64,000 nt of DNA. Source: a plasmid. The stretch lies in the sequence record NZ_KX832927.1, one strand, 5' to 3'. Positions 41,601-56,600 of this stretch are shown in pieces (the stretch's first letter is position 1; every line of letters starts with the position of its first letter). A program made the position numbers.

Positions 41601-44600
41601 CCACCGTTCGAGCGAGCGCGGAACTGCGTTACCGTAGCGCCGCGACGTTCCACCAGCCAGGTGTTGCGATGCGTTTGCATAGGTTGTTCTCTCACAACAT
41701 TCCCCTGCTCGTCCTTAACTTCAACGACGACAGTTACAGGCTCGCGCCCGAGGTTTGTCATGACGATCTCATCCCCATACTTGGCTTCACTTTCACCAAT
41801 GGCTCTTTCAAGATCCACGCCCCAGATGGTGCGTTCCAAACCGCTCTTGTCACGGATGAAGGCAAAGTAGCTGAGCTCGTTGTCTTCGTTATGCTCATAA
41901 GGAGCTTTACCGTGGGCAATCAGAGTACCGGCAATGGATTTTTTACGATTCTTGGAATCGAGAACCTTGTTATTCACCTTCATAGGCTCTTGCTGAACAG
42001 GCGCTTTGGCCTGGACAGGAGCTCGTGTCGGTGCAGCGGCTTGTTGATACTGGGGTTGCTCTTTCTCAACGCCCAGATAATCACCAACCTCGCTCAGGCA
42101 CTGTTTAAAGTCCCAGTTATTGAGCCACATCAGCAGCTCAAAACCATCATGATTGGCACCGCATGTATTGCATACGCCGCCACCAGTCAGGTGGGCATCC
42201 TTGAACAGTCGGAAGCCATCTTTCCCGCCGTGGATAGGACAAGAAACATGACGACCAGGTTTACGGAGAGCTGGTTCAAGATGGGGCGCTAGGGCCGCCA
42301 GGATGAATAGCCAGTTTCCGTTTGCAGCTTCACGAACGGTGTCAGCTTTGTAGTAAGACATAGGTTTTCTCCTTAGCGTGAACCCCAGCATCGAGGCTTC
42401 CTTAAACCCCCGTCGCCAGGGTTTTAAGGAAACCCCGACACCGGGAGAATGTGCCAAGGAGGCTCCCCAGCCGGGGAGAACTCCCCGGCGAGGGGTTTAA
42501 AAAGGTCGCCCCCGAAACGGAGGCGAATTTTGTGAATATCACAAGCACAAATGAGTGCCATCTTCCGAGGCCATCATGATTGTGACATCTGCGGTTACAG
42601 GATCTGACTTAATCACAACCTCAGTGGGTTTGAAAAAGCCATCTACAGTGGGCATGGGGTAATAAAGACGAATCTTTCCCCAATTCTTGTTGTCGGTAAA
42701 AGCGACCTTTGTTTGAGCAACACAAAGCTGCAAAAACATGAAAAGGAAGTCTTCTACCGAGTGCTTACCATCTGCACCAAATACTCCATCGACAATTGCC
42801 GGGGTCACTGCCACATTGGTCAGGAAACCAGCTTGTTTACCGATGGAAGATTGGTCCACCAGCAGACCATCATTGATGGCTTGTTGACGGATTTGGGCGA
42901 GGTCCAATTTAGCTACTTGGTTCATAAGGTGTACTCCAAAGTTAATGGGTACACCTACCCCGTGCGGGGAAGTGTACCCGCATGGGTTATTGAAAGGTCA
43001 CGGCCAAAGCCGAGCTTTAAGGTTCCGAGTTTTACGCTGGCTGAATGCGCCAAAGAACGGTCGGAGGAAACGAGTCAGCGACACGCTTCACATTCGCGTA
43101 AAGAGTGTCCTTAAAGACACGCTCTAAGCGACGACCACCTTGACGATAAACCAACTTAAAGTCTTGGAATTTGTTCATGGATACCTCCAGAAATAACGGG
43201 AGGTATCTCCAGCAGGAGATAGACTCCCGCAGGGATTAATAAATTAACGTTAATTTGCTGTTTGTTTTTGGCGACCAGCTATCGCACGCTTTCGCCCTCA
43301 GGGAGGACAAAATCTGCTTACTGATGGCTTAACCATGAGTAAGAAGACTTGGGAAGTAAAGCAGGGGTTTCCCCCTGCCTTGTTATGCCGCTTTGAGGTG
43401 GCGAGAGAAAAAGTCCCTGGTTTGCTGGATAGCGCCCCGGAGAAGTTCTCGTCTGTAGCCAGCGTAGCTCTTGTCATCACTGGCAACGGTCAAGCCGTGC
43501 AGACTCTCTTCACCCAGGACAATCTCGTTTTCACGAGAGAGTACCTCAACACGTAGGCCAAGCACTCGCTCTTTCCCTTCCAGGATAGAACAAATTGTTT
43601 GGTCTCTTACTTCGTCATCCCAGTGGCCCATATCGAAATCCCGCTCAGGGAGTTCAGTAACACGCACCAGGTAGTTTTCAGTGGCCCGTTCCCAAACCAC
43701 TTCATCTTCGCATGGAGAGGCCTCGATCAGCGAGTACCCGTCCGCTTCGAGCTTCTTGGAAAGACTTTTTACATCATCCGCCAGCTCCAGCACAAAGCGT
43801 TCCCAGAGGTCTTGCCAGCGCTCGACCATATCCTGGTTAATCCCTTCAATGCCGGTGCCAATCATGGAATCATCATCAGGGAAGATCCCTGTGAAGTCCA
43901 CGTTGTCGTCGATGTTCATGCAGTTCCAATGGCTGTAGTGATGCCCGTGACTATTCCGAGTAATGGACAGGTCACAGGAACCATATTCGCGGAGGACAGA
44001 AAGCATATTCTCAATGTCTTTCTGTGCCATCAGGTTCTTCACGCGGCTGACAGCATCCACTTGGCCGGGCTCAGTGCTGAATAGGCGATTCATGAGAGCT
44101 TTGACGTCATCAACGCTCAAATCCCCGTAGAAGGCTACGCCATCCCCCTGGCAGTATCCGAGACTGTACTCAATCGTCAGATCATCCGGGTATCCACACT
44201 TAACCAGTTCGTTTTGAAAATGCTGTTTAATCATTGGTATCTCCTTAATTTCAGAGGGAGACACCATCCCCTCAGGGACCGATGTCCCCCGTGGGGTTAA
44301 TGTTTGGGTTAAGAAGCCTTGCGGCTTAATTCAGTATCAAATCGAGGACCTTTGAGAACCGCAGTTTTCATAACCTCGAAGTTTCTTGGGTAACGCAGCT
44401 TTGAAACTGCGCCAGCTCGGATGTCGGCAGCCTCACTTGGAGAGACTAGCCTTAACCCTTCGCTGGTTTCAGCGTAGAACCAACCGGCATAACGCTCATA
44501 GGCATTCTGCTGGTACTGTTCAGTCGCCATATTCTTCCGGATCGCCTCTGTTAAGGCCTCAACAACACCGTCATCTTTCGTGATGATGTTGAAAACATGA

Positions 44601-53600: not shown

Positions 53601-56600
53601 TCTAAGGCTATGCCATAAAAGCCCATCACGTAACTGCCTTACCTCATCATCAGTCCATTCAGGCTTTGGCTCAAATGGAATGACTTCTGCGGTCTTCGGC
53701 TCTTCATCCAGGAAGAAAAGCGGCAGCTCAAGCTGGTTTTCCTTCTGGATCATCTTCACTGCATTCATGGTGACTCCTTTTACGGGCACCATGCCCCCAC
53801 AGGGGCATGAAGCCCCCAGTGGGGTTACAGTCATAGTTACTTCACGCCTGCCAGTTGAGAATTGATGTTCTCTTCCAGCCAGCCTTGAAGCGATTCAAGG
53901 TCACGTTTGTCTTCCGTATTGCTGGCTTTACGTGCATCTTCCGACACAGCGCTCAACATGGCGTTAGCCTCAGCAAGTGATTCAACATTGTTCCCAGGGA
54001 ACACAATCGTTTGACTGTGATCTTTCATGGTCTTCTCCTTTGAGAATGGAGGACCGTCTCCCATCAGGAAGAGCGGCCCCGTGGGTTAAAAGTAAAAATC
54101 CTCCAGCTCTTCATGGTCAGGCTTTCGCTCAACTGGTCGAAGCAACTCAGCTTCATCAGCGAACTCAAGCTCAGGATGAAAAGCAGGATGAAATCCTCGA
54201 TGCCAGACTGGACGGTCATTATCGAGGTCTAAGTAGCAGTGCCTCCCACTGGCTGGGTGATAGCAGTAAAGCCACTGTCTACCACTAACGGTAAACGGCT
54301 TCTCTGCACCTCCACATGCCGGTACAAGGTTATCTGCTGCTATATGCGCTACAGCATCCATAGGATCAGTCCTCATCTTCGTCATCACGAACACAAAGAT
54401 CACGAGCAACTATTTCCGCAGCTATCAACGCATAATCGTTGCCCTGCCAGAACCACCGCTCCGCCAGCTCATAGGCTTCGCTGGAAGGTTCGCCATAACC
54501 ATGAGCCACCACGTAATCGTGGAACACTTCATGATCAAATGCCTTGCCATCAGCTTCCATGAACCAACCGACAGGGCACTCCAGAATGCGATGCCTTACG
54601 ACATCTCGCTCTGAATACCCCTCTCTGACGGCTTGCTCCAACATTTCCCGCGACATACCAGGAGGAGTGATGATCTCTATGCTGATCCCGTCACTTCCTG
54701 CAAGATTGTCCTCGTATGGAAGACCGGCAAGTGTAAGGTGATTGCGCTTGCACCAGCCGATGGTCCGAAGTATCCGACTTTTGTCAGACTCCCTGGCCGT
54801 GTATCGGTTAAGCTGCATAGCCACCTCCAGCACACTCCCCATCTTCGATTTCACTTCCGAGCTCGACCATTCCAATCAGGTCAAGCTGGGTCATGTCCGA
54901 ATCCAGAGAGCAGTCAATTGCTGACTGAATGATGCCTTTGTGGGCCAAGCCTAAAACGGACTTAATAGTCGAAAGCAGAGACTCGGCTTCGCTCTCGATT
55001 TGCTCCAGAATGTCTTTCCATTCCCAGTGCTCAAACGGTTGCCAAACGACCAGATCCTCAGGCTCGTCTCCCCGTTCGACACACTCAGACAAATACTCAT
55101 AAGCCTTGCACCAATTCTCTTGTTGGCCCAGTTCACTGAGCACTAGAGCGGTAGCATGACCGTATGCGATTTGTTCAACTTTGGTATTGATAGACATAGT
55201 GTTTCTCCTCGTAATGGATAGAGGAGCCCCACCCGCAGGAAAGGCTCCTCCGGATGGGTTAAATTTCCAAGGTCACATCGGTTTTTGCTTTAGCGCAGCA
55301 AACCAACACTTCCCCTTCTTTGACAAATGCGATGGGCGTCTCGTCATAGGCCACTTGACCTTCGAGTAGACGAACCCGGCACATGCCACAAAAGCCACTG
55401 CGACAATGCGTTTCAACAGTGAGGCCTTTGCTTTCGATTTGCGCCAACAGCACATTGTTGCTGGCTTGAAGTTGTACGTTCATGGTCACGCTCCTTTGTT
55501 GTTGATGAGCGCGACCAATCCCCTCCGGGATGTCACGCCCCGGTTGGGCTACTCAGCAAGTGCATAGACACCTACCTCGATGCGAATAAAGAACCTGGCA
55601 TCTTGAAGAACTTGCCTGACCTTTGCTTGCCAGTGGTTGTTCTCTCGATGCTTTGCGTAGGGTTCAATCTCTTTGTAAATCTGCTCCAGCTTCAACGTTT
55701 TCCCCTGTAGGGTTCGGCGTATTGCAGCTTTCCACGTAGTCGAAACCATATTGGTTGCTCGACGGTGTACGGCAGCAAGAAGACAGAGCGATGAGGCAAC
55801 GTCGTTACGACGAAACACCAACAGCTTTTCATGGGCGATACGCACCAGCTTCCCGGAATACTGAGTTCGGTCACTCACACAGTTGTGCTGTGTTTTGATG
55901 ATCTCATCCACCAGCTTCCCAGGTGCGATACGTTCCACAAGGCTGGACAGGTTGAAATAATCCCCATCGCGCCTCAGGTTTCCCATGAGGATTCCGTAAT
56001 GCCCTCCTCGCTCACAGGCGTCATGAATATTCATAACGGCCAGCTCAAGGGCTTCAACGAACTCAGGCAAATTCATGCGGCTCATATCCCATTTGTTGGG
56101 CTCGCCCCACTGCTTACCTGAATACTGGATCATGTCCCAGTAAGGAGGGTGCCACCAGATCAGGTGTGCAGGCTCTCCGAGGAACGAAAGGAAGTCATCC
56201 CGCAACAGGTTGAACCCCTGATGCAAGTCTGTCCCTTTGAAACGGACACCAAGTTCATTGGCAACGTCGATGCTAGAGCCACCCCCAACACTTGGGTCTG
56301 CCACCAGCCCGTTCGGCTTTCTCATGTAAGACTCAATGAAGTCTTTAACGATAAAGCCCGAGCAGTTGCCTCGGTACTTGTTGTTTCCGTAAGGCCCCCT
56401 GTTTTCGTAGGAGCATACTGATGATTTGAACATGGCGTCCTCCATCATAGATGGGGCGCACCATGCTCCCATCAGGGGCCGGTTCGCCCCTGGTTAGGGA
56501 TTAAGATCAAGCGTTATCTGCATACCACCAGCTAAGGCGATTGCAATCACGAAAGAAGGTTGCTTCATCAGGAGCCTTCATCATGACCACATCACCTTCG

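Follow-up and report, generated by a model that had tools for sequence, protein, structure and literature searches.

Across Enterobacterales and Vibrio, IncC plasmids rank among the main vehicles of resistance genes, those for carbapenemases included, and their broad host range depends on passing restriction and CRISPR in every new host. Parts of the backbone that serve this passage have been described. The activator AcaCD controls a regulon that includes the transfer genes (Carraro 2014). The hde operon (vcrx089-093) is an anti-restriction and anti-CRISPR module in which vcrx089-090 counter type I restriction and ssb, bet and exo repair Cas3 breaks; direct repeats termed rptI are substrates for single-strand annealing by Bet/Exo (Roy 2020). 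Deletion of one dcm gene from the IncC plasmid pKAZ3 led to ~2700-fold more EcoRII restriction with a dcm-negative donor (Dimitriu 2024). Here we compare with these systems a 64,000-nucleotide stretch of plasmid record NZ_KX832927.1 (the window) and, within it, a block of genes at 44309-56472. A first-pass annotation had read this block as protective-methylation and anti-defence cargo of a conjugative element and not a complete defence system.

That interpretation was right in outline. The block corresponds to vcrx100-vcrx118 of the IncC plasmid pVCR94 and is a known, partly characterised segment of the IncC (IncA/C2) backbone, so that the finding is real but already known. We consider it probable (about 0.75) that vcrx100-vcrx118 is AcaCD-activated evasion and establishment cargo of the IncC backbone rather than a defence system, since no nuclease is recognisable in it. 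Its part in evasion is in some measure documented already, through the AcaCD regulon, the protection that dcm1 gives against EcoRII and the neighbouring hde operon, and in this respect the observation adds no new biology. What is new here concerns rptI, which has a covariation-supported, strand-specific structure and a wide proteobacterial distribution and is absent from Rfam.

An IncC backbone block under AcaCD control

Open reading frame (ORF) calls on the window gave ~20 ORFs in 44309-56472, all intact and each with a Shine-Dalgarno (SD) sequence. All lie on the minus strand, in agreement with the co-directionality reported earlier, and every ORF named in the first-pass annotation was recovered there, either exactly where it had been placed or a few codons off. 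In PLSDB, 908 plasmids match the 12.2 kb of the block; for 798 of these the best match reaches at least 99% identity, 889 are typed as conjugative, and 644 records cover at least 80% of the query. The top 20 matches listed are 100% identical over 100% of the query and include pYR1, which is typed as IncC with a MOBH relaxase and MPF_F; the description as cargo of a conjugative element is therefore correct. Hosts of the matching plasmids span more than 20 genera, among them Klebsiella, Escherichia, Salmonella, Vibrio, Aeromonas and Shewanella. Gene order and gene lengths correspond one-to-one with vcrx098-vcrx119 on the pVCR94 gene map (Dataset S1 of Carraro 2014). With the described IncC backbone (pVCR94; Carraro 2014, Roy 2020) the window thus shares an identical sequence over the whole 12.2 kb, gene order and lengths, AcaCD boxes and rptI repeats, with no material difference; it represents another plasmid of this family, in which positions 1 to ~27 kb are a resistance island.

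AcaCD boxes were located by ChIP-exo upstream of vcrx098 and vcrx114 (Carraro 2014). In the window, these two boxes are one 30-nt repeat, and the published coordinates map to both copies:

46458-46487, minus strand: AcaCD box of promoter P(vcrx114), a ChIP-exo motif at 86650-86678 of pVCR94
57859-57888, minus strand: AcaCD box of promoter P(vcrx098), outside 44309-56472, which likely drives vcrx098-113

For nearly every block gene, RNA-seq of pVCR94 gave ~0-6 units when acaCD was missing but hundreds or thousands when it was present; wild-type, acaCD-deleted and complemented strains gave 422, 1 and 1288 for vcrx100, 501, 4 and 2677 for vcrx109, and 298, 6 and 979 for vcrx113 (Carraro 2014). 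The block therefore belongs to the AcaCD regulon, and its predicted operons are 098-103, 107-111, 112-113 and 114-119 (Carraro 2014). Sigma-70-like promoters are scarce in 43000-62800 (one seen, against 13.1 +/- 3.4 in shuffled sequences), a depletion that fits a block that is silent unless AcaCD is present. In the mechanism that we propose, the block would be silent by default and AcaCD would switch it on along with the transfer genes. Because vcrx107-113 are AcaCD-dependent yet lack an AcaCD box of their own, transcription from P(vcrx098) would read through the rptI elements up to vcrx113.

Similar arrays occur in more distant elements. The order exo - DUF3150 - VWA - ... - dcm3 ... primase is kept in Vibrio parahaemolyticus pVPSD2016-2 and in an Alcaligenes element (MOBH), and a toprim primase closes the array in both of these and in IncC. 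Aeromonas salmonicida pAsmA has the same order up to an insertion sequence or transposon inserted after the Dcm. The Aeromonas and Alcaligenes elements also encode a C5 methyltransferase, and pVPSD2016-2 has an annotated yfbR. Such conservation bears on the idea that the block is decaying passenger DNA without current function, which would accord with its dispensability in the laboratory and with the many ORFs that belong to no known family. We give this idea next to no credence: all ORFs are intact with SD sequences, the block is 100% conserved among hundreds of plasmids whose hosts belong to more than 20 genera, and distant MOBH elements keep its gene order although their proteins are only 60-80% identical, with the catalytic motifs unchanged. 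Its expression is, moreover, strong and regulated, and a knock-out within it has a phenotype.

The methyltransferases and the search for a nuclease

Two methyltransferase genes and a ferredoxin gene lie in the upstream half of the block:

50796-52421, minus strand: vcrx109 (dcm1), orphan C5 cytosine methyltransferase of 541 amino acids (aa), matched in Pfam, NCBIfam, PADLOC and PDB
55549-56472, minus strand: vcrx100 (dcm3), S-adenosylmethionine (SAM)-dependent amino-methyltransferase-like protein of 299-307 aa, with a RefSeq start at 56448
55259-55483, minus strand: vcrx101, YfaE-type 2Fe-2S ferredoxin of 74 aa, with a Fer2 match (E 1.5e-10) and the RefSeq name yfaE

The Dcm-like C5 methyltransferase of the first-pass annotation is present as described. 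vcrx109 matches PF00145 (E 9e-29), TIGR00675 (E 1e-26) and M.HhaI (E 3e-13), with a PF00145 score of 101.3 bits, above the cut-off of 22, and a TIGR00675 score of 94.4, slightly below the cut-off of 100.65. The motifs FHGGG, GIPC, ENV and GQSV can be read in the sequence and include the catalytic PC, ENV and FxGxG elements. Like the orphan Dcm-type methyltransferases of plasmids and phages (E. coli Dcm, M.EcoRII, 'dcm3' of pKAZ3), vcrx109 combines a PF00145 core, in which every catalytic motif is present, with EcoRII protection and the lack of a cognate nuclease. Unlike them, it carries extensions of ~125 aa at the N-terminus and ~100 aa at the C-terminus around a catalytic core at aa 127-441, and its expression depends on AcaCD.

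The published names of these genes differ between studies. Wang 2019 named dcm1 (1626 bp, WP_000201432.1), dcm2 and dcm3 (924 bp); WP_000201432.1 is the accession annotated on the vcrx109 gene in pYR1, and 924 bp is the length of the long vcrx100 ORF. In the pKAZ3 study, the vcrx109 gene is labelled 'dcm3' (Dimitriu 2024). Arm H1 of the pKAZ3 knock-out is identical to 52419-52468 of the window, and its end coincides with the start codon (ATG) of the 541-aa Dcm. Arm H2 has no match at up to 3 mismatches; inspection placed it at 50771-50816, on the stop codon, where it differs by one substitution and an indel of 1 nt. The identity of H1 to the vcrx109 start and the position of H2 at the stop codon indicate that the protective pKAZ3 methylase is vcrx109, and for the Dcm the proposal of protective methylation is therefore borne out by the EcoRII phenotype. 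We also considered whether the 'dam1' knock-out of pKAZ3 was vcrx100 and rejected this, because nothing in the window matches its primer arm. In the proposed mechanism, vcrx109 would methylate the plasmid in the donor, which would then enter the recipient shielded from EcoRII-type (CCWGG) restriction.

The second enzyme had been annotated as an N6/N4 methyltransferase starting at 56433. The ORF is present, but its start lies at 56448 (RefSeq) or 56472 (longest ORF), and its class was drawn too simply. Its PF01555 match (33.6 bits, gathering score 26.7) covers only aa 18-86, or profile positions 147-214 of 221. Motif I (DPSVGGGSS) comes before motif IV (WWHPPY), a gamma-like order, and with the partial match and the HPPY sequence this departs from the beta-class PF01555 pattern. 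The protein also matches MTase_II of PADLOC (E 4e-13), and its C-terminal winged helix resembles DpnI_C, although this match is weak (aa 254-293, E 2.5e-4) and, at 21.6 bits, falls short of the cut-off of 23.

For vcrx100, ~400 homologues with a length of roughly 294 aa were found; the best 120 show 62-88% identity and come from plasmids or contigs of beta- and gammaproteobacteria and some Pseudovibrio. Neither motif I (DPSxGGG) nor the sequence W-H-P-(P/A)-Y varies among 24 aligned homologues (63-82% identity), and motif I precedes motif IV, which begins with His in 24/24 and not with the (D/N/S) of (D/N/S)PPY. An AlphaFold model (pLDDT 80) contains only a class I SAM methyltransferase fold and the C-terminal winged helix, and its Foldseek matches include M.BseCI, aTrm11, lmo1582 and M.TaqI, with TM-scores of only ~0.3. 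M.BseCI and M.TaqI are adenine methyltransferases, and Trm11 is a tRNA m2G methyltransferase. With these gamma-class N6-adenine enzymes and Trm11, vcrx100 shares the class I SAM fold, as predicted, and the position of motif I before xPPY. It differs in its invariant HPPY or HPAY motif and in having the DpnI_C-like winged helix instead of a large target-recognition domain. On these sequence features, vcrx100 is probably an active, conserved amino-methyltransferase-like enzyme with gamma-like motif order, which would add a second base methylation to that of vcrx109. Both methyltransferase ORFs are intact, the vcrx109 core is complete, and the vcrx100 motifs are invariant in its homologues.

The first-pass annotation had noted a ferredoxin gene next to that of the N6/N4 enzyme. 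A Fer2 protein does follow, 65 bp downstream of vcrx100; its score (41.3 bits against a cut-off of 21), its readable CX4CX2C...C cysteines and its small size are those of a YfaE-type ferredoxin. The gene also lies next to dcm3 in pVPSD2016-2 and pAsmA. Despite this conserved adjacency in two relatives, we disfavour vcrx101 as a redox partner of vcrx100. Pseudomonas contigs (L006/L007, 11152-14016) encode the large subunit of a class I ribonucleotide reductase 3 kb downstream of a dcm3 homologue, and this location, together with the YfaE type, makes it more likely that vcrx101 is tied to ribonucleotide reductase than to the methyltransferase.

We found no nuclease, HsdS-like specificity subunit or defence effector among ~26 ORFs with Pfam, NCBIfam, PHROGs, PADLOC and PDB sequence searches, the last for vcrx111, vcrx118 and vcrx119, although very divergent nucleases could escape such searches. 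The same profile and PDB searches covered a hidden nuclease partner and led us to reject it, which upholds the earlier claim that no nuclease or effector is recognisable. A cognate endonuclease or specificity subunit beside the methyltransferase, the hallmark of classical restriction-modification, was not found among these ORFs. This result also counts against the interpretation of Wang 2019, in which the plasmid forms a mobile barrier resembling restriction-modification: it relabels the host genome, a methylation-sensing nuclease excludes foreign DNA, and the winged helix of dcm3 serves as reader. That study deleted dcm1-3 in all combinations and found that the host methylome was altered, without clean motifs (Wang 2019). 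The sub-threshold DpnI_C match of dcm3 would suit a reader, but neither dcm3 nor its neighbours have a nuclease domain in Pfam, PHROGs or PADLOC, the predicted dcm3 structure shows only the two domains above, and the methylome evidence is weak. We consider such a barrier very improbable.

The DndC-like protein and the remaining genes of the block

The rest of the block consists of one large protein, one nucleotidase and small ORFs:

46516-48969, minus strand: vcrx113, DndC-like PP-loop ATP-pyrophosphatase of 817 aa, from profile matches and predicted structure
45434-46039, minus strand: vcrx115, YfbR-like HD-domain 5'-deoxynucleotidase (PF12917 E 8e-38; RefSeq name yfbR)
46111-46314, minus strand: vcrx114, ORF of 67 aa, first gene of the AcaCD-driven operon vcrx114-119
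44309-45441, minus strand: vcrx116, vcrx117 and vcrx118, ORFs of 89, 72 and 185 aa
49057-50735, minus strand: vcrx110, vcrx111 and vcrx112, ORFs of 143, 184 and 128 aa
52499-55197, minus strand: vcrx102-vcrx108, seven small ORFs (51-150 aa), each with its own SD sequence

vcrx113 had been described as a PAPS-reductase protein. Its length, position and PP-loop stand, and on its TIGR03183 (E 1e-34) and PADLOC DndC (E 1e-41) matches it is better termed DndC-like; it also matches the PHROG 'PAPS reductase' (E 3e-11) and has no Pfam match at E <= 0.01. In an alignment of homologues, the SSGKDS residues S73, G75, K76, D77 and S78 are invariant, C173, C285, C298, C304 and C307 are at least 90% conserved, and there is a cysteine cluster of the pattern CX..RFGCxxC, as expected of a PP-loop enzyme with Fe-S cysteines. 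In the predicted structure (pLDDT 86), the N-terminal half resembles PAPS-reductase, CysD and TtuA folds, and the C-terminal half (~aa 440-817) is helical without a structural match. Homologues occur on other large plasmids. That of IncHI2 pAPEC-O1-R (DQ517526; 794 aa, 44-47% identity) sits in a similar co-directional run of small ORFs, and on a related contig (L003) the same DndC-like protein has an Mrr_N-N6_N4 methyltransferase upstream, which suggests an accessory-module architecture shared among large plasmid families (IncC, IncHI2).

Together with DndC, SspD, BrxP and a vibriophage PAPS-domain::Dam fusion, vcrx113 has the PP-loop SGxDS, the cysteine cluster with RFGCxxC, a DndC profile match and a location on a mobile element beside methyltransferases. 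The fusion protein defeats Dnd defence (Piel et al.) and is, by analogy, the nearest functional precedent for vcrx113. Unlike DndC, SspD and BrxP, vcrx113 is solitary, scores below the family cut-off and has an extra 375-aa helical C-terminal half. We suggest that it may either put a non-methyl mark on DNA or interfere with phosphorothioate-dependent defences.

A stronger version would make vcrx113 the core of a plasmid phosphorothioation system of Dnd or Ssp type that, with host IscS and block proteins, sulfur-marks plasmid DNA. The strength of the DndC profile matches, the conserved PP-loop and cysteine cluster, and a TusA sulfur-carrier gene in the equivalent array of pVPSD2016-2 (L005, 11292-11522) speak for such a system, as does type 4 BREX, in which PAPS-reductase proteins take the place of the methyltransferase. 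The score of vcrx113, however, is far below the DndC equivalog cut-off, its neighbours include no homologue of DndA, DndB, DndD, DndE or SspBC, the C-terminal extension is unlike DndC, and the pVPSD2016-2 array with TusA lacks the DndC-like gene. Phosphorothioation by the plasmid therefore seems quite improbable.

The YfbR-like nucleotidase is as had been annotated, with a PF12917 score of 130.4 bits, above the cut-off of 25.9. Along with YfaE, it may tune deoxynucleotide supply for DNA synthesis after transfer. This leads to a further explanation, in which the block mainly supports establishment and DNA synthesis: YfaE would maintain the activity of the class I ribonucleotide reductase of the host, deoxynucleoside monophosphate pools would be trimmed by YfbR, the incoming strand would be processed by primase, SSB and Bet/Exo, and the methyltransferases would be epigenetic regulators or plasmid stabilisers, not shields. 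Consistent with such support are the names of the YfaE and YfbR products, the ribonucleotide-reductase subunit near the Pseudomonas dcm3 homologue and the toprim primase that ends the array in three elements. Plasmid loss during construction of the dcm deletions (Wang 2019) and the regulation of transfer by methylation in other plasmids (Dimitriu 2024) point the same way. Yet the ~2700-fold rise in EcoRII restriction on loss of the Dcm is direct evidence of an anti-restriction function, and the adjoining vcrx089-093 have proven evasion functions (Roy 2020).

Deletions also argue against a supporting role as the main one. Rescued plasmids with deletions of 9-24 kb (up to 23.7 kb), which run between rptI copies on either side of a site just downstream of exo, were transmissible (Roy 2020). 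By our own mapping, the largest of these rptI-rptI deletions would remove the whole block, including dcm1 and dcm3. Plasmids without the block would thus still replicate and transfer, so that it appears not to be needed for establishment in laboratory hosts and to be dispensable for replication and transfer in the laboratory. We regard support of DNA synthesis as possible, if on the unlikely side, as the main function of the block; it is compatible with evasion and does not exclude it.

The first-pass annotation had counted more than 10 small acidic proteins. In 44309-56472 there are 14 small unassigned ORFs, of which ten have an isoelectric point (pI) below 5.6 and only five a pI below 5, so the earlier count was somewhat overstated; vcrx102, vcrx103, vcrx105 and vcrx106 have pI 4.1-4.9. 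No family match was found for vcrx102-108 (Pfam, PHROGs, PADLOC), no family or PDB match for vcrx110-112, and no match for vcrx116-118 (Pfam, PHROGs, PADLOC, PDB sequence searches). The suggestion that several of these proteins could be anti-defence factors found no support. In transposon sequencing (TnSeq) with a V. cholerae recipient carrying active restriction and CRISPR, only vcrx089-093 scored and no dcm gene did (Roy 2020), and plasmids that would have lost the block remained transmissible.

Several points weigh against evasion and establishment cargo as we read it. Any benefit depends on the recipient. The HPPY motif of vcrx100 is, at the sequence level, atypical for a putative methyltransferase, and the sole published methylome resolved no clean motifs for dcm1 or dcm3 (Wang 2019). 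The report that a triple dcm deletion abolishes transfer (Wang 2019) conflicts with the transmissible deletions of Roy 2020. The roles given above to YfaE, YfbR and the 14 small ORFs are inference only. Finally, the TIGR03183 score of vcrx113 is 119.8 bits, below the NCBIfam DndC equivalog cut-off of 290.4, and no DndA, DndB, DndD, DndE or SspBC lies near it in its IncC neighbourhood or in the IncHI2 context, which makes a DNA-modifying role a conjecture.

rptI elements, gene leaders and flanking regions

The window contains five intergenic elements of 115-145 nt, each of them on the coding strand:

61530-61660, minus strand: rptI-type element upstream of vcrx094
57699-57826, minus strand: rptI-type element between the P(vcrx098) AcaCD box and vcrx098
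53285-53429, minus strand: rptI-type element upstream of vcrx107
49502-49621, minus strand: rptI-type element upstream of vcrx112
43246-43383, minus strand: rptI-type element downstream of vcrx119

By position and copy number, these elements are the rptI repeats of Roy 2020: intergenic position, region and number of copies per plasmid (typically ~6 in IncC) are the same. A wholly new repeat was accordingly rejected. Where Roy 2020 described direct repeats, we see a secondary structure with covariation and an occurrence in a much broader range of taxa. A covariance model built from the five window copies identified 6 copies on pAsmA and 7 on pVPSD2016-2, as well as 3 weak ones in the Alcaligenes element. 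A core-motif scan of one genome per species gave at least 119 stretches, against ~9 expected by chance by our own estimate; in 80 loci retrieved with it (L011-L090), the covariance model found 86 copies, distributed over 56 of the loci. Thus, rptI-type copies across diverse beta- and gammaproteobacteria number at least 86. In Rfam, the whole window has no match at gathering score, and one rptI copy had only chance-level matches at E <= 5.

In alignments fitted to the covariance model, 92-94% of cells are paired, compared with 64-71% in shuffles and 34-49% when the partners are slid, and 21-23 of 24 pairs show compensatory changes. Two hairpins, one 5' and one 3', and a long-range stem make up the fold; the 3' hairpin has the invariant loop UAGCUGG and is followed by a CA-rich tail. 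On the sense strand, G-U pairs outnumber A-C pairs by 112 to 33, which indicates that the sense strand is the folding strand. An Frpo-like single-strand promoter is disfavoured by the same counts, since the template strand would carry mismatches. Orientation agrees with that of the flanking ORFs in 57 cases against 6 downstream and 61 against 12 upstream. Candidate functions of the fold are RNA processing, read-through, a ribosome standby site and a single-strand priming site.

Structure is also seen at the gene starts. In the 51 nt around almost every start codon, an anti-SD sequence (CTCC) pairs with GGAG, with z-scores against shuffles mostly of -2 to -5. The leaders (45 nt before most starts in 43383-62667) contain a small GC hairpin and, after it, another hairpin formed by this anti-SD-SD pairing; examples are 46040-46085, 52422-52468 and 61458-61516. 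Two leader sequence families recur, AACCGGGCGCATCCGCCCGGTTCGGGACGTGGTGCGCCCCC and AACCCCACGGGGG..CCCTGAGGGG. Start-codon structure of such a kind was noted solely for vcrx089 by Roy 2020.

These structures and vcrx113 raise the possibility of a second layer in the block. vcrx113, possibly with vcrx100, would mark plasmid DNA non-canonically or disarm phosphorothioate-dependent defences, and rptI would be a functional structured RNA or a sense-strand single-stranded DNA motif that, with the hairpins hiding the ribosome-binding sites, controls processing, read-through or translation, beyond passive annealing by Bet/Exo. We offer this layer tentatively and think it rather doubtful as a whole.

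Leading-region anti-defence islands (Samuel et al. 2024) resemble the block in their co-directional orphan methyltransferases, ssb, recombination genes and small ORFs. Unlike those islands, the block would lie far from oriT: on the pVCR94 map it occupies 75-88 kb, with the acr1-acaDC-acr2 cluster (vcrx146-150) near oriT, and the window shows no sign of oriT or mobI. It is driven by the AcaCD activator and not by single-strand promoters, and the folded strand of rptI is the sense strand and not the template strand. We looked in the literature for the direction of IncC transfer and the identity of its leading strand and did not find them.

Two further features lie upstream of the block:

61657-63761, minus strand: exo (vcrx093, 61657-62667) and bet (vcrx092, 62730-63761) of the hde operon
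58253-58282, minus strand: strong intrinsic terminator with a 13-bp stem and a T run, after vcrx095 (VWA)

The ssb-bet-exo genes are thus upstream as had been annotated, with ssb cut by the end of the window. The hde transcript starts at P(vcrx087) and probably ends at this terminator. On the other side of the block, 27-44 kb is backbone with rhs and the toprim primase, and IS26 and aac(6')-Ian are also found there. The resistance island, from 1 to ~27000, is inserted beside this rhs/toprim backbone; it is a mosaic with a GC content of 0.55-0.68, and its genes include a Tn3-family transposase, mer, ISCR1 and groEL.

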